A model generated the notes under the pieces. That model saw only the letters and a program-made list of their open reading frames with translations. It made no database searches and was not told the DNA's origin. Source: Clostridium neonatale (GTDB lineage Bacteria; Bacillota; Clostridia; Clostridiales; Clostridiaceae). Taken from it: DNA of 40,000 nt. Each line of letters opens with the position of its first letter. Positions within the stretch are counted from its first letter, which is position 1. The position numbers and the translations under genes are program-made. Of this stretch, positions 11,299-40,000 are shown in pieces. The stretch spans positions 2,244,831-2,284,830 of the forward strand of contig NZ_LN890328.1 of NCBI RefSeq assembly GCF_001458595.1. The letters are read 5' to 3'.

Positions 11299-11885
11299 CT
11301 ATTTTATAGCTTTTTCTGCATAAGAGTTATCAACAATAGCGTTAAATGCTGGTTTTTGTGGAATTAAACTGCTGTCATATTCAATAATAATATCCATTAA
11401 TCTATTTAAATCTTCTTCTTTAATTACTGGATTATGAGCCAAAGCATCGATTTTCTTATAATTATCTATAACTGTAACTATTGTATCTTTATCAGTACCA
11501 GGGAAATAGTCAATTATTTTATCTGCTATTTCTTCACTTGAATGAGAAAAATACCATTGTTGGCCTTTATAAATAGCATTTGTGAATTTCTGTATTACTT
11601 CTGGATTTTCTTTCATATATGAATTTGTAGCAAAGAAACAAGTATATGGTATGACACCTGATTCTTCACCTACAGAAGCAAGTATATGACCTGTTCCTTC
11701 TTTTTCAAGAACTGAAGCTGTTGGCTCAAATAAAGCAACGTAATCTCCAGTACCACCTTTAAATGCTCCTGCAGTAGCTGCAAAATCTATATTTGTAACC
11801 ATATTTGCATCTGTCTTTGGAATGATTCCATTTTGCTTCATAGCATATTCTAGTGCCATAGCTGGAACTCCTGCAAGACTCTTCA
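11299..11885 (-). pseudogene. ABC substrate-binding protein (NMT1/SsuA-like), C-terminal ~195 aa only; 5' part missing
   Basis: The tail of track ORF 11299..12093, AGVPAMALEYAMKQNG...GDYVALFEPTAS...IQKFTNAIYKGQ, fits the C-terminal lobe of NMT1/SsuA-type binding proteins. The first ~73 codons (11886-12093) are unrelated hydrophobic sequence with no RBS. No signal or lipoprotein sequence is present. Confidence 0.6.
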
Positions 11886-11998
11886 AATACATATTAATTT
11901 TCCAATTGCTTGGAGATTTAAATCTAATATAAAAAATGACAGTATAATTAACACCACCAAATAAATATAACATTCCCCAACAAACTAATAATAAAAGT

Positions 11999-12030
11999 GT
12001 AGTTACTATATCAATATTGACAGTAACTAC
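11999..12030. repeat. 32-bp imperfect palindrome in the prophage end arm
   Basis: GTAGTTACT-ATATCAATATTGAC-AGTAACTAC, with perfect 9-bp arms and an inner TCAATATTGA palindrome. On the minus strand it is followed by a T-rich run, so it could act as a terminator or as a protein-binding site. Confidence 0.4.
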
Positions 12031-12130
12031 GCCAAAAAATCGGCTCAGTCCAAAATTGGATTGAGCTTTTTCTTCCTTACCAGTAGGTGTCATAAGAACT
12101 GTAATAAAAATGTCGCAAAAACTAATTTAA

Positions 12131-12472
12131 TTCTTGTTATCATCCTATTCCTCAACAGTTCTAGCTTTACAATGCCTTTTATTTTTTTGTAAAATATTTC
12201 TTGTTACACTTTTTGTTACACCCTAAACCCTCTCTATTCCTTGCCTTTATATATATATTATATATATTGTAATAATAATATATAAATATATATATATAAT
12301 AAGGGAGATACATATACATACCTATATAGTATTATATATAAAGATAAGCACGTGTAATTTCAACTCTTGTTACACCTAGTGGAATTATCTTTAAACCCTT
12401 GTAATATCGGGGCTTAGAGGTGCGCAAAAGGGTGAAAATTCTTGTTACATAGGGCTGAAATTCTTGTTACTA
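12131..12472 (+). repeat. IR-L: composite module with six TTCTTGTTACA-type boxes around a TA-repeat core
   Basis: Boxes lie at 12131, 12198, 12210, 12364, 12439 and 12461, all in the same orientation. The TA-rich core is ~12246-12329. The 22-mer TATTATATATAAAGATAAGCAC lies at 12330-12351. The module is the inverted counterpart of 38143-38511. Confidence 0.85.
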
Positions 12473-12506
12473 TATATAAAATAACTGTTTATTTTTATTA
12501 AATATT

Positions 12507-12515
12507 TGTTATAAT
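12507..12515 (+). promoter_or_regulatory. Extended -10 promoter (TGTTATAAT) reading rightward out of IR-L
   Basis: Exact TGnTATAAT with AT-rich upstream sequence. No ORF lies downstream. Confidence 0.4.
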
Positions 12516-12522
12516 ATAAATA

Positions 12523-12652
12523 AGAAAAGCCTAGTGCGGGAACACTAAGCTTCTCCTAGAACGTTTTTAGTTTTAGGGCTATTGAAATTCACATATATAA
12601 ATATGTTTTAATGAAAAAGCACTTATTCTTGGTTAGATGGGGTGCTTTTTTC
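12523..12652 (+). ncRNA. Candidate antisense RNA (putative type I antitoxin) convergent with the 55-aa ORF
   Basis: Predicted start is ~7 nt after the -10 element. The possible 3' end is the hairpin AAAAAGCAC...GTGCTTTTTT (12614-12651). It is non-coding and fully complementary to the 3' UTR and last codons of the minus-strand ORF. The ends are predictions only. Confidence 0.3.
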
Positions 12653-12790
12653 ATTTGTGTTTAATTCAAAATTAATCCATTTAATTAAACTCAAACTTAT
12701 TTTACAATTCTTACTTTTAGGGTTTAACGCCACAATAACAACTGTTATTATAGCAACTATACACACTAATAGAACTATACAAATCCACAT
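12623..12790 (-). CDS. Small membrane protein, 55 aa (candidate type I toxin)
   Basis: Absent from the ORF track because it is under 60 aa. Sequence: MWICIVLLVCIVAIITVVIVALNPKSKNCKISLSLIKWINFELNTNEKSTPSNQE. The SD AAGGGGGTGG lies 7 nt upstream. It has an N-terminal TM helix and a polar tail. Confidence 0.5.
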   Translation of the reverse strand: MWICIVLLVCIVAIITVVIVALNPKSKNCKISLSLIKWINFELNTNEKSTPSNQE

Positions 12791-12888: not shown

Positions 12889-12963
12889 TTATTTGTTTTT
12901 ATGTGGAATATTTTTCTTTTATACAATTTATGCTTTTTAAACAGACATAATATTAACCTACAA

Positions 12964-12999
12964 AAAAGGAGATAACTAAATTAATAGTTGTCTCCTTTT
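12964..12999 (-). terminator. Hairpin terminator (unit U8) downstream of the 44-aa ORF
   Basis: 15-bp arms AAAAGGAGA(T/C)AACTA with a 6-nt loop, followed by a T run on the minus strand. Homologous to the U5 hairpin. Confidence 0.5.
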
Positions 13000-13075
13000 A
13001 GGTAAAATATGAATAAATATATAAAAAAAATGTTCCACCAAAATACATATCGAAATATTTTTAAATCACTTTAGC

Positions 13076-13210
13076 TTATATTAGTTCTTTTTTTACATAC
13101 TCTATTATAGTATCTTCTTCACCTTTAAATACATCTGCTAACTTTAATATAATCTCTTGATCTTCTATATCCATATCTTTTATTATCTCATACAATTTAT
13201 TATTGCACAT
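13076..13210 (-). CDS. Small acidic protein, 44 aa, unknown function
   Basis: My translation is MCNNKLYEIIKDMDIEDQEILLKLADVFKGEEDTIIEYVKKELI. The RBS is weak (GTGGGG). TATAAT lies ~25 nt upstream. Confidence 0.35.
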   Translation of the reverse strand: MCNNKLYEIIKDMDIEDQEIILKLADVFKGEEDTIIEYVKKELI

Positions 13211-13248
13211 AACTATACCCCACTGCTATTATATAAGCTTATATAAAG

Positions 13249-13281
13249 AGCTAGAAAAAGACTCTTTGTCTATCTCTAGCT
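13249..13281 (-). terminator. Hairpin terminator (unit U7)
   Basis: AGCTAGA...TCTAGCT outer stem with an inner GAC/GTC stem. Followed by CTTTATAT on the minus strand. Confidence 0.35.
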
Positions 13282-13429
13282 TTTTATGGTTTTTTTAACC
13301 ATAATTTAATACTCTTTTATAGTCATAATTGAATTCTTTTTTATTATAATTTACTTTTATATTTTTTATGTTAAATTTATGTTATATTTATATTAATTAT
13401 TTGTAAATATTTTATATTTTAAAACCAAA

Positions 13430-13509
13430 AGATAAAACAAAAGAGATAGCTTAAAAGGGGTTGGAAGCTATCTCTTTCTAAGTATTCTGGGCAAAAATAT
13501 TGTCTTTAC
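13430..13509 (-). ncRNA. Candidate small RNA unit U6
   Basis: Promoter TTGAAA (13545-13540), 18-nt spacer, TATAAT (13521-13516). About 80 nt without an RBS-led ORF. Perfect 12-bp hairpin AAGAGATAGCTT/AAGCTATCTCTT followed by TTTGTTTTAT. Confidence 0.35.
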
Positions 13510-13589
13510 ATACATATTATACTATAATTCTCCCAAACTTTTCAATATTTTATATCATATTTTTCAATACATTACATATTTTAATGTCA

Positions 13590-13667
13590 AGCAAAAAGAG
13601 ACAACTAAATTCATAGTTATCTCTTTTTTGATTATGTCATAAATATAAAATAATGAGTACCCCACTC
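13590..13667 (-). ncRNA. Candidate small RNA unit U5
   Basis: Extended -10 TGCTAAAAT (13682-13674). About 78 nt. Hairpin AAAGAGATAACTA/TAGTTGTCTCTTT followed by a T run. Confidence 0.3.
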
Positions 13668-13715
13668 AATTGTATTTTAGCATATTTTTAAATAACTTTA
13701 AACTCTAATTTATTT

Positions 13716-13793
13716 CATAGAAAAGAGATGGTCAAAGGAGCTATCTTTAAACCATCTCTTTAGGGAATTTTTGAACTAATTTGCATCTATTTC
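13716..13793 (-). ncRNA. Candidate small RNA unit U4
   Basis: TGATAATAT -10-like element (13808-13800). 11-bp hairpin AAAGAGATGGT/ACCATCTCTTT whose loop contains GCUCCUUUG (anti-SD-like), followed by a T run. Confidence 0.3.
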
Positions 13794-13841
13794 GTATCCA
13801 TATTATCATATTTTTTAACACTTTTCTATATTTTTCTACTC

Positions 13842-13904
13842 AAAAAAAGAAAGCCTATCTATAAAGGAGAGAAGTGTGGCTTTCTTTCTACTATTTGGAG
13901 TTAC
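13842..13904 (-). ncRNA. Candidate small RNA unit U3
   Basis: Extended -10 TGATAAAAT (13919-13911). 10-bp hairpin AAAGAAAGCC/GGCTTTCTTT whose loop contains UCUCUCCUUUA (anti-SD-like), followed by T7. Confidence 0.3.
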
Positions 13905-13929
13905 ATTTACATTTTATCATATTTTTACA

Positions 13930-14020
13930 TAAAAATAAAAGCCGATTAAAGAAATTAATCTCCAACCAGCTTTTACTATTTAATAGAATATGCAATCTTA
14001 GATCTGGGGATCACATTTTC
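13930..14020 (-). ncRNA. Candidate small RNA unit U2
   Basis: Promoter TTGAAA (14056-14051), 18-nt spacer, TGATATAAT (14035-14027). About 90 nt. Wobble-containing 12-bp hairpin AGCUGGUUGGAG/CUUUAAUCGGCU followed by UUUUAUUUUU. Confidence 0.35.
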
Positions 14021-14091
14021 AAAAATATTATATCATATGTTTTTTTAGCTTTTCAATTATTTTAAAGTATATTTTTTCTAAAAATCTATAT

Positions 14092-14171
14092 AATAAAAGT
14101 CAGCTAAAGAATTTAGTCTCTAACCGGCTTTTATTGTTTTCTATTTTATAGATATATGAATTTTTAAGTGT
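14092..14171 (-). ncRNA. Candidate small RNA unit U1
   Basis: CGATATAAT -10 element (14186-14178). About 80 nt. Its hairpin is homologous to that of U2 (AAAAGCCGGTTAGAGACTAAATTCTTTAGCTGACTTTT), followed by a T-rich run. Confidence 0.3.
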
Positions 14172-14234
14172 ATTGCTATTATATCGTATTTTTTTACATA
14201 ATAAAATAGTTTTTTTTATATTATTTAGCAAGTT

Positions 14235-34556: not shown

Positions 34557-35996
34557 TTATTTAAATATTGACATACCACTAGGTTTATTTATCATTTCTG
34601 CTATTCCAGTTGTAGCATCTGGAGCATCATCATGCTTGTTCTTTCCTTCACGTTGATATTTAATCATGGCATTATAATATTCTGGCCATCTGTCTTTCCA
34701 ATTTGACGGAAAGTATATATGTTCCAGTACCCAAGTTGAATTACTAAGTATCCTAGCTTCTTTATTCTTAGATTGATGAAATGGCTTAATAACTGTTTTA
34801 TTGCTGCCAAACTTCTCTTTTAATATTCTTTTTACATTTCTTGCAAAGCCTTCTCCACCATTGTTACTCTCAATATCTGCTTTATTGACATTACCTTGAT
34901 ATAACATCTTAGCAGTTTCATTTTCAGTAACTGACATATCCTTTTGTGTATAAAGTACGTCTAATATATAAGCTTCTTTATCATAAACACCATAGTTAAT
35001 ACTACATAAGTAATCCTCTCCCTTGTCTGCTGTATCTGTATAGTTCTTAATAGCTGTAAATAGTAAATTACCATTACTATCCTTAGGCAATTCTGTATAG
35101 GTCTTAAGTTTAGGATATAAACGACCTTTTAAGTCTATAGGCTCTTGTTGATAATTTGCACTTGCTATATCTGCCCCCATAGTCTTAATTTTATTTTCAT
35201 ATGACTTTCTACTTAATACTTCATCACAAAGCATTGTTCCATCATCTTGAAGGGCTTTCATAGATATATGCTTAATCTTTCTGTCAGCCATTTCTTCAAG
35301 TACTTTACCTGCTAAATCATCACTGGCCCATCTAGTCATTATGATTATTATTTTTCCGCCTTCTTCTAAACGTGAAAGCATTGTATTAGTAAACCACTCC
35401 CAGTGCTTTTCTTTAACACCTTCGTTATTGGCTTCTTCTGCATTCTTGATTAAATCATCAATAATCATTAATGAACATCCAAATCCTGTTGCTGTTCCAG
35501 TAGGAGATGTGGCAAGATAATTATTATATCCGCCTTCTAAGCTCCATAAGTTCATAGCACCATCACCACGCTTTATGGCTACATCAGGAAATACATCACT
35601 GAATACTGGTTTATACTTATCTGCCTTTTCTTCCTGGATGCTATTTCTAACATTCTTAGAGAACATAGTTGAAAGAGTTTCATTATATGATCCAGTCATT
35701 ATCTTTTCAGTTTGATTTTTACCAAGTACCCATTCAACAAATAATCCTGCCGTTCTTGATTTTCCATGTCTAGGAGGTTCATTTACTACAAGTATTTCAT
35801 CTTCACCCTCATAGAACTCTTGAAGGTCATTACATAGCTCTACTAGATATTTTCTATTTGGTTTATAAAAGTCAGGTGCTTTTAAATTGCAGTAACTAAA
35901 AAAAGACCTTCTGGCCTTTAATATAGATAGCTTTAATTTCTTTTCCTGTAATTCTTCTAATGCTTTTAAGTATTCCAGCCTATCCATCCTTATCAA
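34557..35996 (-). CDS. terL: Terminase large subunit
   Basis: Walker A-like PPRHGKS, Walker B MIIDDLI and a C-terminal nuclease region. The start is TTG 35996 or ATG 35987, overlapping the terS stop. Confidence 0.85.
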   Translation of the reverse strand: MIRMDRLEYLKALEELQEKKLKLSILKARRSFFSYCNLKAPDFYKPNRKYLVELCNDLQEFYEGEDEILVVNEPPRHGKSRTAGLFVEWVLGKNQTEKIMTGSYNETLSTMFSKNVRNSIQEEKADKYKPVFSDVFPDVAIKRGDGAMNLWSLEGGYNNYLATSPTGTATGFGCSLMIIDDLIKNAEEANNEGVKEKHWEWFTNTMLSRLEEGGKIIIIMTRWASDDLAGKVLEEMADRKIKHISMKALQDDGTMLCDEVLSRKSYENKIKTMGADIASANYQQEPIDLKGRLYPKLKTYTELPKDSNGNLLFTAIKNYTDTADKGEDYLCSINYGVYDKEAYILDVLYTQKDMSVTENETAKMLYQGNVNKADIESNNGGEGFARNVKRILKEKFGSNKTVIKPFHQSKNKEARILSNSTWVLEHIYFPSNWKDRWPEYYNAMIKYQREGKNKHDDAPDATTGIAEMINKPSGMSIFK

Positions 35997-36488: not shown

Positions 36489-37175
36489 TTATTCATTATG
36501 ATCAACTTTATCCCATATATAAGCTACATCTTTATATTCTTCATCAACCTTATTATATAATTTATCTACTTCATCCATTACAGGCTTTTGAACTTTATCA
36601 AGCTCTTTATATAATTCCTCCAATTCTTTATAATATGGTTCAAGTTTCTTTTGTGTAGCTAGTAGCTTGTCTTTTTCACTAGCTGTTAAAACAGGTAGTG
36701 ATTTTATATAATTTACCATGCTATCATATATGCTTTCTTCATTATTATCATCTAAACTTTCTTCATTTATGTCAAATCCATTAATAAGCTTGCTCGCTTC
36801 GTATTTATGGGCTTTATCCATTATTTTGCTATCTTCATTTTGTATTTCATAAATTTTATCATCCACTGCTTGTATTTTAACTCTTACATCAGCACCAAGA
36901 CTATCAGCCTTATCAAGTAATATATCAATTTGTTTATATATGGGTTGTATCACTTTTTCTGATTCTATTAATTTTTGTTTTTCATCATTGCTTATACCTT
37001 TTAAAGATAATATATATTCTTTAAATTCTTTATCTAATATGTAATCTTCTTGAACTTGAACCACTTCATTTTCTTTTATTTTATTAGCATTCGCTGTTGA
37101 AGCAAATACACCTGTTGATGCTGAACTAACAACCATACATCCAATCAATAACATTTTTAATAAATTCTTTTTCAT
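36489..37175 (-). CDS. Secreted protein with an internal tandem duplication, unknown function
   Basis: Signal peptide MKKNLLKMLLIGCMVVSSASTGVFA. Two ~70-aa helical repeats: YILSLKGISNDEKQKLIESEKVIQPIYKQID... and YIKSLPVLTASEKDKLLATQKKLEPYYKELE... Confidence 0.7.
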   Translation of the reverse strand: MKKNLLKMLLIGCMVVSSASTGVFASTANANKIKENEVVQVQEDYILDKEFKEYILSLKGISNDEKQKLIESEKVIQPIYKQIDILLDKADSLGADVRVKIQAVDDKIYEIQNEDSKIMDKAHKYEASKLINGFDINEESLDDNNEESIYDSMVNYIKSLPVLTASEKDKLLATQKKLEPYYKELEELYKELDKVQKPVMDEVDKLYNKVDEEYKDVAYIWDKVDHNE

Positions 37176-37279
37176 AATAAACCATCTCCCTCATTTCTTT
37201 CTTATACTTATAAGACGATTTATATATTATAAAAAGTTTTAAATTATTTATAAATTCAAAAAAATTTTTATAAATAATA

Positions 37280-37303
37280 AAAGACACCCAACTGAGTGCC
37301 TCT
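37280..37303 (-). terminator. Weak hairpin plus U run in the leader downstream of the repeat-containing promoter
   Basis: AGAGGCAC-UCAGUUGG-GUGUCUUU (two G-U pairs) followed by UAUUAUUUAU. It begins ~14 nt after the predicted start site. Confidence 0.3.
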
Positions 37304-37323
37304 TGATAAATTTCTATGATAGT

Positions 37324-37410
37324 ATTATATAATACTTTTTCCACTAAAACGTGATTAAAAAGTGTACAAAAAGTGTTGTAAAAGTGGTATAAACGCGGTC
37401 AAAAAGTGTT
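37324..37410 (-). promoter_or_regulatory. Candidate late promoter: 11-bp-phased CAC(T/G)TTTT repeats ending at the -35 position of a TATAAT
   Basis: On the minus strand the CAC starts lie at 37408, 37386, 37375, 37364 and 37353, giving spacings of 22, 11, 11 and 11 nt. A degenerate copy lies in between. TATAAT is at 37329-37324. Confidence 0.5.
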
Positions 37411-37876
37411 ATGGATATATTAACTCGCTTAAATAATTAATCACACCAGTCCTTATCTTCTTGCAATAATCTTTATCAAATCCTAGCTCTTGACCAATCT
37501 CTATCCATGATTTTTTATTTCTACCACTAAGATATCTTAATTTAACAAGTTTATATTCATTTTCTGATAATTGCTGCAAAGATGATTGTATTTTTATTTT
37601 TAAATCTGAATAATATTTTTTCTTAGCTTTTAAAATACAAATTTGTTCCTGAATATATTCCTCTCGTCTTATAACTTCATCTTCCACACTTGATGTAATT
37701 TTATGTGTTGGACTTGATTTTTCCTCAAATGATATAGCTCTAACTGTTATATCATTTTCTAAATTTTCAATATCTATTTCTATATTTTTAATTTTGGTAT
37801 CTAAACTATTGTAATTATAAAGTGAAGATTCTGTTTTCTTAAACTTATTTTCTTTCATATTCATAACCAAACCCAT
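37409..37876 (-). CDS. RinA/ArpU-type late transcriptional activator (sigma-70 region 4-like HTH)
   Basis: SSLYNYNSLDTKIKNIEIDIENL... and the C-terminal LSENEYKLVKLRYLSGRNKKSWIEIGQELGFDKDYCKKIRTGVINYL fit the RinA/ArpU pattern. The true start may be ATG 37864. Confidence 0.7.
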   Translation of the reverse strand: MGLVMNMKENKFKKTESSLYNYNSLDTKIKNIEIDIENLENDITVRAISFEEKSSPTHKITSSVEDEVIRREEYIQEQICILKAKKKYYSDLKIKIQSSLQQLSENEYKLVKLRYLSGRNKKSWIEIGQELGFDKDYCKKIRTGVINYLSELIYP

Positions 37877-37905
37877 CCTTTATGTTATAATATTAGATGG
37901 GTAGT

Positions 37906-37956
37906 GCATTAGAGAAAGTATATAAATTGGCGTTTATAGTTCTCTAATGCTTTTTT
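37906..37956 (+). terminator. Plus-strand terminator-like hairpin between the 53-aa ORF and the activator gene
   Basis: GCATTAGAGAA-(23 nt)-TTCTCTAATGC followed by T6 on the plus strand only. Confidence 0.35.
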
Positions 37957-37968
37957 ATATTAATTATT

Positions 37969-38130
37969 TTAGTTTCTTTTTTCTTCCATCTTTTGTATCT
38001 CTGATTTCAACTGTCTTCTCTCATTTAATAAATATCTATTAGGTTTATGATTACTCCTATATGCCTTTCTAATTTGAGATTCAACTTCTTTTAATCTATC
38101 TTTTTTAATTTCTAACATATTAAAACCCAT
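37969..38130 (-). CDS. Small coiled-coil protein, 53 aa
   Basis: The track ORF extends to 38187, but ATG 38130 follows GTGAGGTG. Sequence: MGFNMLEIKKDRLKEVESQIRKAYRSNHKPNRYLLNERRQLKSEIQKMEEKRN. Confidence 0.5.
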   Translation of the reverse strand: MGFNMLEIKKDRLKEVESQIRKAYRSNHKPNRYLLNERRQLKSEIQKMEEKRN

Positions 38131-38142
38131 CAAAATCACCTC

Positions 38143-38511
38143 ACGTAACAAGAATTTAAGGCTCATGTAACAAGAATTTTTAGTCATTATTATGCCTTAA
38201 ACCCTCACTATTTCTAAGGTTACATAGATTTCTACATCTGTAACAAGATTTAAAATTGTATGTGCTTATCTTTATATATAATATATAGTATCTATCTATG
38301 TATATATATTTCTCTTTATATATATATATATATATTTATTATTATTATTACATATATATATAATATATAAGGGAACATAGAAACGGTGAGGGTTTCGGCT
38401 GTAACAAAAAGTGTAACAAGAATTTTTTCCAATTTTTTAAAATTGCGTTCTATCCTTTACACCTTGAGCCTTTGCACTGTCATAAAAATTGTAATAATTC
38501 TGTAATAAGAA
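38143..38511 (-). repeat. IR-R: inverted counterpart of IR-L (six boxes plus TA-repeat core)
   Basis: GTAACAAGAA-type boxes on the plus strand lie at 38143-38154, 38165-38176, 38238-38249, 38399-38410, 38411-38422 and 38500-38511. The TA-rich core is ~38284-38369 and the 22-mer is at 38262-38283. The module fills the whole intergenic gap. Confidence 0.85.
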
Positions 38512-38512
38512 T

Positions 38513-39454
38513 TTAGGCTTGCTTTTTATATATTCTATCCAATACTTCTTTGTCTTCTGTAATGACATCATAAACACCAACATCAACTCGTTTGATCCTA
38601 TATGTTGTTTTATTATCAAATGTGTCCTGCTGCTTCAACTGATTTATAAATGGACCTTGATAATCTTTTATTAACTCATTTATAGTTAATTTTTGAATCA
38701 CTTTTTCAGTACTGATAATATTTCCTTGTGAATCTGTAGTGGTATACACCATGGCTTCACCAAAAATATCTTCAAATACTTTGTCCATATCAGCCTTAGC
38801 CTTTGGATCACTGTTAATAACATCCCATACATAACTACTTACACATTCAAATAATGGCATTTCCCATCTAGGACAGGTTAAATAATCTTTTCCCCTTCCC
38901 TTTCTCCATCTATACTCAACATGATGCATAATTAGACTTTCTGTTAATAACATGTTTCCAGTTTCGTTTTTATCTCTCCATTCTTTTATTCTCTTAGCCT
39001 GTTCATATGATCCACCTATAATTTGAATTATTTCATGTTCCGTAAAGTATTTATCTAACATTGGCACAAATGAATCAATTATTGTAGCTCCACAATCCAT
39101 TAAATAACTATTAGCACTATCTCTATATTGATTTAACTCTTCTAAATAGTTCTTATAATCTTCTTTAAAACGCCTAGATAGCTTTTTATCTTCTAATATT
39201 TTTCTTACTCTATTAATTTCTGGAATATAAAAATCGTCTAGTTCTTTATACACCTTTCTTATCCCAAATTTTAATTTAACAAGTCCATTACTTATATAAA
39301 GCCTATCATCCTTTAAATCTCCACCTTTTAGTAACCTAATCAGTCTTTCTGTTTGCAATCCTGGACGTTCCTTTAACATTTCATCTATTTGCTTTTCAAG
39401 TTTAACTTTCTTTTCTTCAGCTAATTGCTCTTTGCTTTTAAATTCAGTTATCAT
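38513..39454 (-). CDS. Hypothetical phage protein, 313 aa
   Basis: ORF track, GGGAGGG RBS. I recognise no motif. Confidence 0.6.
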   Translation of the reverse strand: MITEFKSKEQLAEEKKVKLEKQIDEMLKERPGLQTERLIRLLKGGDLKDDRLYISNGLVKLKFGIRKVYKELDDFYIPEINRVRKILEDKKLSRRFKEDYKNYLEELNQYRDSANSYLMDCGATIIDSFVPMLDKYFTEHEIIQIIGGSYEQAKRIKEWRDKNETGNMLLTESLIMHHVEYRWRKGRGKDYLTCPRWEMPLFECVSSYVWDVINSDPKAKADMDKVFEDIFGEAMVYTTTDSQGNIISTEKVIQKLTINELIKDYQGPFINQLKQQDTFDNKTTYRIKRVDVGVYDVITEDKEVLDRIYKKQA

Positions 39455-39475
39455 AATGATTGCCCTCCCTTAAAT

Positions 39476-39708
39476 TTACTTTTTAGTAGAAATACCGCCT
39501 CGTATATTCATTTCTGACTTATGCGATTTTAATATCAGACTTATCTCAGCTTGCATCAATGGATTTATTTCCTTAAGCCTTTCAGTAATATCTAAATATA
39601 TAGTATTTCTACCTACTCCAAATTTTTTAGCAGCTTCTCTAACAGTAGCATCAGTATCTATAATATATTGAGCTACTTCTTTGACCCTAGCTAAATATAA
39701 TCATTCAT
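39476..39708 (-). pseudogene. SpoIIID-family HTH transcriptional regulator, interrupted by a 1-nt frameshift after codon 5
   Basis: ATG 39708 follows AAGGATGG and gives MNDYI then TAG. The -1 frame continues LARVKEVAQYIIDTDATVREAAKKFGVGRNTIYLDITERLKEINPLMQAEISLILKSHKSEMNIRGGISTKK*. Joined, the two parts align colinearly with SpoIIID (M.DYI..R......YI..T..TVR..AK.FGV...T...D.TERL.EINP...RGG..TK). Confidence 0.75.
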
Positions 39709-39720
39709 TTGACCATCCTT

Positions 39721-39909
39721 TCACATCTCTGAAGTATCATTTGTTCTTATATCTGTCCTATCAAAATACTTAATTCCTTTTGCTCCAATTACTGTTTTAC
39801 ATATGATAACAACAATATTCTGCATTATTTCTCCAATCACATATATTAACATTACTGTTCCAGTAAATATCCATGGACTCGAAAATATATATTTTAATAT
39901 TTCTAACAT
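39721..39909 (-). CDS. Small membrane protein, 62 aa
   Basis: ORF track, with two hydrophobic helices. Function unknown. Confidence 0.5.
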   Translation of the reverse strand: MLEILKYIFSSPWIFTGTVMLIYVIGEIMQNIVVIICKTVIGAKGIKYFDRTDIRTNDTSEM

Positions 39910-39952
39910 GTATATTCTCCTTTCTATATCCGTTTTAAGTATTGTGCACTAA

Positions 39953-39989
39953 AAAATACCGCATATTCTTTTGAATAATACGGTATTTT
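39953..39989. terminator. Hairpin terminator upstream of the 62-aa gene
   Basis: AAAATACCG-(19 nt)-CGGTATTTT with A/T runs on both sides. It probably ends a minus-strand unit that starts beyond the window. Confidence 0.4.
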
Positions 39990-40000
39990 CATTAATTTTA

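Follow-up and report, generated by a model that had tools for sequence, protein, structure and literature searches.

Within a 40,000-nucleotide (nt) stretch of the Clostridium neonatale genome (contig NZ_LN890328.1, positions 2,244,831 to 2,284,830; hereinafter the window), we identified on the minus strand at 39476 to 39708 a locus that is very likely a pseudogene, namely, the decayed version of a prophage-carried gene for a helix-turn-helix (HTH) regulator of the SpoIIID family. The same prophage carries two arrays of short boxes, IR-R and IR-L, which the original prediction had proposed to be read by the phage regulator or by the host SpoIIID so as to couple late-gene control to sporulation; the arrays appear to be a separately inherited element and not operators of the SpoIIID-like protein. 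Below, we describe the gene and its lesions, followed by the arrays and their genomic setting.

The locus opens with a good ribosome-binding site (RBS; AAGGATGG) and ATG 39708, from which the frame reads MNDYI and then TAG, and it spans 233 nt, i.e., 3n-1; these features of the original prediction were confirmed on the minus strand (Table 1). The body of the gene continues in the -1 frame, which reads ..LARVKEVAQYIIDTDATVREAAKKFGVGRNTIYLDITERLKEINPLMQAEISLILKSHKSEMNIRGGISTKK followed by a stop, remains open for 72 codons until TAA at 39476, and covers helices 1 to 4 of the protein, including the HTH (residues 23 to 48 of the structural model; see below). The only open reading frame (ORF) listed for 39476 to 39708 is one of 27 amino acids (aa) with a TTG start. 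The RBS block AAGGATGG also precedes a 322-aa gene in a related contig (L024) from which the SpoIIID cassette is absent.

Joining the two frames yields a 77-aa protein that matches the Pfam SpoIIID model (PF12116) with 88.6 bits (E = 3e-25; residues 3 to 77 against model positions 2 to 76 of 82), the curated cutoff being 27 bits, and that also recovers the PHROG family phrog_11726, "sporulation stage III protein D" (E = 1.6e-23). Its sole significant sequence match of known structure is Bacillus subtilis SpoIIID (PDB code 2l0k), with which it aligns over residues 1 to 76 (E = 3.4e-18). An AlphaFold model of the intact 85-aa allele (see below), with a predicted local distance difference test (pLDDT) value of 83, has helices at residues 3 to 19, 23 to 30, 34 to 48, and 50 to 83, i.e., the helix 1, HTH, and long C-terminal helix that define the SpoIIID fold, and its sole significant match by fold in the PDB is again 2l0k (template modeling [TM] score, 0.76; 49% identity). 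The repaired protein is therefore a clear member of the SpoIIID family, as the original prediction had held. It is nevertheless not counted as a sporulation orthologue, because its score against the NCBIfam SpoIIID equivalog model (TIGR02844) is 86.8 bits, below the cutoff of 111.5; the 85-aa allele (98.2) and a divergent form that we term type B (105.6) also fall under this cutoff. The window gene is thus a prophage-borne member of the family and not the chromosomal sporulation gene. Compared with bacterial SpoIIID proteins (B. subtilis 2l0k and clostridial versions of 84 aa), the phage protein is alike in fold and length class, with 49 to 55% identity, and shares the motifs D-I/L-T-E-R-L and R-G-G. 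In contrast, the recognition helix reads GRNTIYLD in the phage protein versus SKSTVHKD in its bacterial counterparts; since this is a difference at 6 of 8 nearly invariant positions, the targets of the intact phage protein are probably not canonical SpoIIID sites.

The nature of the 5' lesion became apparent from intact C. neonatale alleles recovered by a protein search and cluster look-up, namely, P0048 (85 aa; 115 contigs), P0049 (23 contigs), and P0052 (77 aa), all of which start with MNDYIEARV. The DNA of intact loci (L012, L015, L016, and L031) reads ATT GAA GCT versus ATT TAG CT in the window. The lesion, at 39692 to 39693 on the minus strand, accordingly consists of TA in place of the ancestral GAA of codon 6, i.e., a G>T substitution combined with the loss of one A, and the site occurs in the forms ATTTAGCT and ATTGAAGCT, of which the latter is the intact one. 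The ancestral residue 6 is Glu, not Leu, and is nearly invariant in a 21-sequence alignment of the family. The codon-6 lesion is the sole difference between P0052 and the window allele. Thus, the frameshift that the original prediction recognized is real, but the intact state is not the TTTT that it had postulated, and no T has been deleted. Its other suggestion, an error of sequencing or assembly in a homopolymer that would leave the gene really intact, has in its favor that the lesion adjoins a TTT run, but its probability is negligible because the 233-nt allele is 100% identical in 14 assemblies of different accessions, including both isolate genomes and infant-gut-type metagenomes, and relative to the intact alleles the change is not one of run length. 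Moreover, the mosaic phage backgrounds that carry the broken allele number at least two (L025/L027 versus L026). An 82-aa protein (P0002; MKGWSNEW.., MKGWSNEWLYLARV..) was considered as a compensating TGA>TGG variant and rejected: its DNA is identical to that of the window, and its Trp is a TGA translated under genetic code 4, making it a gene-calling artifact of the TGA=Trp code. Such calls, comprising P0002 and a 72-aa version of the upstream ORF, are seen on short low-GC contigs (L002 to L011) with the same DNA as window positions 39476 to 39730 and are not real variants.

Two further changes have damaged the same allele (Table 1). An extra A near the 3' end replaces the terminal TKSKFKGGQSL with TKK, thereby shortening the protein from 85 to 77 aa and removing both the K-x-K-F/Y-K tail and the overlap (ATGA) of its stop codon with the start of the next gene. 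In the common 85-aa form, which terminates in ..MHIRGGISTKSKFKGGQSL, the TGA overlaps the ATG of that gene. This basic tail (T-K-x-K-Y/F-K after R-G-G) is retained in the 85-aa alleles (RGGISTKSKFKGG..), type B (RGGMATKNKYKGGD), and the host SpoIIID proteins, and the C-terminal basic region is reportedly required for SpoIIID to bind as a monomer. The window allele instead ends in RGGISTKK, so that of the basic RGG..TK region included in the match by the original prediction, only a part is present. The other change places Asn at the family-invariant His of the E-R-H-I-R-GG motif. Because P0052 (L015/L016) has the 3' extra-A change but an intact 5' end, the allele sequences place the C-terminal truncation earlier and the codon-6 lesion later, and the latter step appears to be recent because no extra substitutions have accumulated since.

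Based on these comparisons, we propose the following history. The ancestral gene encodes 85 aa within a variable accessory cassette at the end of the early operon, with its stop overlapping the start of the next gene (ATGA). In the window lineage, the invariant His was changed to Asn and an extra A removed the basic tail, giving the 77-aa form. The most recent step, GAA>TA at codon 6, created the TAG and left the remaining 72 codons out of frame, such that translation from the good RBS would give MNDYI only and the window allele would produce no functional protein. The original prediction considered the gene to be simply dead if other isolates had the same defect and expressed no protein; other isolates indeed carry the same lesion, and we read the gene as dead from its sequence.

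Certain observations weigh against this interpretation. The broken allele has no further mutations and hence shows no relaxed-selection signature of its own, which we attribute to the recent date of its inactivation; its presence in at least two mosaic phage backgrounds could mean that it is tolerated or even favored; and NCBI annotates a 62-aa product with an ATT start (P0003), a low level of N-terminally truncated protein being possible. Such a truncated protein might still regulate, as it would keep the HTH helices (residues 23 to 48), and GenBank annotates it in this manner (PEG27700.1); yet ATT is a poor start with no convincing Shine-Dalgarno sequence before it, and helix 1 (model residues 3 to 19) would be missing nearly in full, together with the basic tail and the invariant His, making this an unlikely account. 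Even less credible is programmed recoding, in which ribosomes, by shifting to -1 or by hopping over UA at AUU UAG, would supply a low level of the full-length regulator, with the TAG serving as a regulatory pause. The good RBS, the intact 72-codon downstream frame, and the persistence of the allele in two phage backgrounds would be consistent with it. However, the site U AUA UUU AG (read as UAU AUU UAG) contains neither an X XXY YYZ heptamer nor a tandem-slippery pattern, bearing out the view of the original prediction that there is no convincing slippery site, and tRNA-Ile on AUU is unable to re-pair at -1. The 70 nt downstream fold with -10.5 kcal/mol, against -8.9 ± 2.6 for shuffled sequences, and thus offer no stimulatory structure. 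Moreover, the frameshift is found in no homolog, all of which are single-frame, including the near-identical P0052, and the same allele bears the two other damaging changes. We hence favor a pseudogene, and both the 62-aa ATT-start coding sequence and the 82-aa P0002 are best treated as such in annotation.

The box arrays themselves are real, as the original prediction had stated. Searches of the window for TGTAACAAGAA with up to one mismatch recovered 13 matches against 1.9 expected, a number reached by none of 100 shuffles. Eleven of these 13 lie inside two arrays of six boxes each, at 12131 to 12471 (minus strand) and 38144 to 38511 (plus strand), the sixth IR-L box (12131 to 12141; GATAACAAGAA) having two mismatches; all 12 array boxes read TAACAAG and thus share ACAAG. 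The matches outside the arrays, an exact one in a host gene (1990 to 2000) and one with a single mismatch in a terminase gene (34826 to 34836), equal the chance expectation in number. The two modules (~350 to 375 bp) are inverted relative to each other and bracket the whole 26-kb late region, and each combines its boxes with a (TA)n-rich tract: in IR-R, the boxes flank a 114-nt tract with 88% A+T, and that of IR-L has 85% A+T, the tracts being 111 to 114 nt across modules, as against a window average of 71% A+T. IR-R and IR-L differ in their spacers, which have diverged, but have kept the boxes, AAACCCTC, and a block of 21 nt (TATTATATATAAAGATAAGCAC when read on the minus strand of IR-R). In related phages (L024, L026, and L028), the IR-R array is almost identical despite different flanking genes, and together with the 53-aa gene, it forms a conserved ~560-bp cassette with sharp mosaic boundaries. 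IR-L is situated at the end of the prophage, past the terminator of the late operon. In an IMG/VR contig (L029), the neighbors of the same IR-L half, at a distance of ~400 bp, are a gene for a large serine recombinase and a lysogeny module of the ImmA/ImmR type. L029 and another IMG/VR contig, L030, begin inside the TA tract, suggesting that assemblies break there. Sigma-70 promoter and terminator scans of the arrays gave counts at or under the shuffle expectation in this AT-rich DNA, and an Rfam search of both array regions recovered nothing credible. Just past IR-L boxes 1 and 2, the plus strand of 12480 to 12640 has an extended -10-like sequence (TGTTATAAT), and a downstream hairpin with a T-run (AAAAAGCAC..GTGCTTTTTT) overlaps the 3' end of a 55-aa minus-strand ORF (12623 to 12790); this could be a short antisense transcript.

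We then considered whether the boxes might be operators of the phage SpoIIID-like protein or of the host SpoIIID. SpoIIID is said to recognize the degenerate consensus WWRRACAR-Y. Its high-affinity site is TAGGACAAGC (PMC11180830), with which the boxes share ACAAG, and they are asymmetric, as a monomer site would be. Further, the SpoIIID-like gene lies 1 kb from IR-R, the prophage encodes a sigma factor best matched by SigK and SigE models (see below), and phages phi3626 and CP51 also pair a sigma factor with a SpoIIID homolog. Against this, none of the 12 boxes fits RRACAAG; they have T-A (T-A-A-C/T-A-A-G) at the G-G/R-R positions of SpoIIID, and the best alignment of a box to TAGGACAAGC has 6 of 10 identities, the sole shared sequence being ACAAG. 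By our estimate, an 11-mer and a 10-mer would share one 5-mer by chance in roughly 5 to 10% of cases. The window has 22 RRACAAG sites, of which none is in either array, and there are no such boxes near the SpoIIID homologs of phi3626 and CP51. A sigmaE-like -10 element (CATACAAT; 38255 to 38262, minus strand) was rejected as an IR-R signal, for it is neither conserved in IR-L nor enriched (9 found versus 7.8 expected).

The phyletic comparison of boxes and regulator pointed in the same direction. The same boxes are present in L024, where the syntenic position lacks a SpoIIID gene and the 322-aa gene directly follows those for the primase and the 42-aa protein; in L028, where the SpoIIID-type protein (type B) is 51% identical with a recognition helix of AKATIQKDLTERL versus GRNTIYLDITERL, and where the 313-aa gene is missing; next to the intact type A allele (L015 and L016); and in all phages with the broken allele. 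The gene thus looks dispensable, and the boxes are kept where it is absent, divergent, or broken; because regulator and sites neither co-occur nor co-vary, they do not behave as cognate operators. A point on the other side is the short length of the L024 contig (2.5 kb), which leaves room for a SpoIIID gene in another part of that phage. Overall, these sequence comparisons do not support operators of either protein, and we consider the proposal of the original prediction improbable; host SpoIIID may possibly bind the boxes, with the conserved GG/RR positions of its site unmatched. The 313-aa protein is likewise unlikely as the box reader because L028 has the boxes without its gene. A broader scenario is that, with the intact 85-aa allele, the SpoIIID-like protein and the SigK/SigE-like phage sigma form a phage copy of the mother-cell sigma/SpoIIID circuit, which times the early-to-late switch or rewires host sporulation, possibly via the TAACAAG arrays. 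It appears improbable as well, but if it were true, the broken allele of the window would be a natural loss-of-function variant of the circuit.

What the arrays most resemble, in our estimation, is a pair of origin-like modules of iterons and DNA-unwinding elements (DUEs), comparable to oriL/oriR of phage SPP1. Each module has several same-strand repeats beside an AT-rich element, as in iteron origins, with six boxes at spacings that include 22 and 12 bp. In SPP1, the initiator gp38 binds both of two distant modules, each combining direct repeats with an AT-rich DUE, and the second copy stalls the fork and acts as a fork barrier (PMC6316719). IR-L and IR-R are similarly two distant and similarly organized modules with phased direct repeats plus a tract rich in A+T (~110 nt here); unlike the SPP1 modules, to which they have no sequence similarity, those of the window are inverted and bracket the whole late region, and they are a predicted origin. 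On this view, the reader of the boxes would be some conserved early protein, the leading candidate being the 865-aa primase-helicase, the one protein that always accompanies the boxes in the relatives sampled. A point against it is that this assignment draws on architecture. The main rival is a late-operon control region, in which the boxes would be regulatory sites bound by a different phage product, e.g., the sigma factor, the RinA-like activator, or the 53-aa protein. We regard this as a possible but less probable reading: IR-R lies exactly between the early and late operons, with the RBS of the first late gene directly adjoining boxes 1 and 2, and it is co-inherited with the 53-aa gene as a single cassette; however, there is no late operon downstream of IR-L, which sits past a terminator at the prophage end, and the RinA-like proteins are only 41% identical between phages with identical boxes.

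Table 1. Coordinates of the SpoIIID-like locus, the box arrays, and neighboring genes in the window
Feature	Position	Strand	Basis or remark
Shine-Dalgarno-like AAGGATGG	39713..39720	-	4 nt 5' of ATG 39708; read from sequence
SpoIIID-family gene remnant, 5' end, ATG AAT GAT TAT ATT TAG (MNDYI, stop)	39691..39708	-	TAG at 39693-39691
SpoIIID-family ORF body, -1 frame relative to ATG	39476..39694	-	Translation; PF12116; phrog_11726; 2l0k; model
Codon AAT (Asn) at family-invariant His, E-R-H-I-R-GG motif	39506..39508	-	21-sequence alignment; CAT in common 85-aa alleles
A5 run, versus A4 in 85-aa alleles	39480..39484	-	Allele comparison
IR-R, six direct boxes TGTAACAAGAA at 38144, 38166, 38239, 38400, 38412, 38501	38140..38515	+	Spacings 22, 73, 161, 12, 89
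IR-L, inverted second copy, six boxes	12125..12475	-	Spacings 22, 75, 154, 12, 67; prophage end, beside att junction
Gene for 62-aa predicted small hydrophobic (probably membrane) protein	39721..39909	-	Directly upstream; same variable cassette
313-aa gene, phrog_11432	38513..39454	-	Downstream neighbor; absent in L028
53-aa gene, first after IR-R	37969..38130	-	Inherited with IR-R as conserved ~560-bp cassette
RinA/sigma-region-4-like late regulator, phrog_36	37409..37876	-	Terminase genes next

The genomic context of the locus is as follows. Positions 1 to ~11.9 kb of the window are host chromosome, encoding a ZapA-domain protein, MurT/GatD, a D-Ala-D-Ala carboxypeptidase, YitT, LrgA, and an ABC transporter, the last with a truncated gene for its binding protein, and from ~11.9 kb on, the window consists of prophage with its genes on the minus strand. 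In the order of transcription, these are the SpoIIID-like gene, the 313-aa gene, IR-R, the 53-aa gene, and the genes for the RinA-like protein, the small and large terminase subunits, and the portal, through to the amidase, followed by a region of small ORFs and then IR-L. The prophage is of the siphovirus type and is inserted into the gene for the ABC transporter binding protein. At ~11880 to 12100, the N-terminal part of this NMT1-type substrate-binding protein is replaced by junk ORF sequence, the att junction likely lying at the imperfect palindrome AAATCTCCAAGC/AATTGGAAAA; in L029 (1 to 2451), the corresponding sequence TCCAAGCGCTTGGA adjoins the gene for a 657-aa large serine recombinase with a C-terminal HTH_3 domain. 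The window is 100% identical to C. neonatale assembly GCA_002553615.1 over the stretch compared.

Genes of the early operon that lie upstream of the SpoIIID-like gene and beyond the window specify RecT, a 323-aa sigma-70-family protein, an ERCC4 nuclease, the 865-aa primase-helicase, a 42-aa protein, and a GNAT acetyltransferase. The 323-aa sigma (L025, 4555 to 5526; ~5 kb past the window end at 40000) combines sigma-70 regions 2 and 4 with an additional HTH at its C terminus; among specific NCBIfam models, it is matched best by those of SigK and SigE, at ~70 bits, far under their cutoffs. The GNAT acetyltransferase, the 62-aa small hydrophobic protein (no family match in a PHROG search), and the SpoIIID-like protein together make up the variable cassette (window 39721 to 40000; L001, 1930 to 2960), which is wholly absent in L024, while in L026 and L028 the acetyltransferase is replaced by other small genes. 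The acetyltransferase gene has a moron-like organization, with its own TGnTATAAT-type promoter and a hairpin and T-run after it (~39950 to 39990, minus strand). In one metagenome contig (L002, 475 to 1411), the 313-aa gene is called as ORFs of 151 and 146 aa, which is either a possible second broken gene or an assembly error. The interval between the endolysin gene and IR-L (12900 to 14230) has no ORFs other than very short ones, and we noted in it several families of repeated promoter-like sequences (..TATCATATTTTT) and hairpins (e.g., AAAAGGAGATAACTAAATTAATAGTTGTCTCCTTTT at 12964 and 13593). Small RNAs, or small units of the moron or toxin-antitoxin type, are possible identities for them, and an Rfam search of this repeat region recovered nothing credible.

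A megablast search of window positions 37000 to 40000 against GenBank phages gave no match, and IMG/VR scans with the 313-aa protein and the repaired SpoIIID protein recovered no relatives. A genome scan with an alignment of the 313-aa family retrieved four distant prophages (L017 to L020). Neither these nor L021 to L023 have a SpoIIID-like gene within 5 kb or any boxes, and no analogous iteron arrays were found at the syntenic position.

Phage-borne SpoIIID homologs are already known, and the window gene belongs to an ordinary, already-annotated class that has here been recently inactivated; GenBank labels as SpoIIID both the intact 85-aa alleles and the 62-aa stub of the window allele. The finding is therefore of little weight in itself, such homologs having been noted since phi3626 in 2002. 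Its value lies rather in the prophages of C. neonatale, where intact, divergent, broken, and absent variants on a near-identical background provide a ready genetic series for studying effects on sporulation. The box arrays likewise deserve study in their own right, possibly as a paired origin, rather than as operators of SpoIIID. Among known systems, ORF42 of Clostridium phage phi3626 is a SpoIIID homolog (Zimmer et al. 2002, as cited in PMC3442830), gp43 of vB_CpeS-CP51 is another, phrog_11726 collects further ones, and spoIIID is listed in a table of regulators of sporulation that are enriched in gut phages and in those of spore-formers (Schwartz et al. 2023, PMC10294663). The window prophage resembles phi3626 and CP51 in that the early/replication module of a temperate Clostridium siphovirus, which has a sigma-70-family gene in the early region, ends with the gene for a small SpoIIID-family HTH protein. 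It differs from them in that the proteins are only 46 to 48% identical, the gene belongs to a different cassette (GNAT, 62-aa protein, and SpoIIID), and it has been inactivated by three derived changes.

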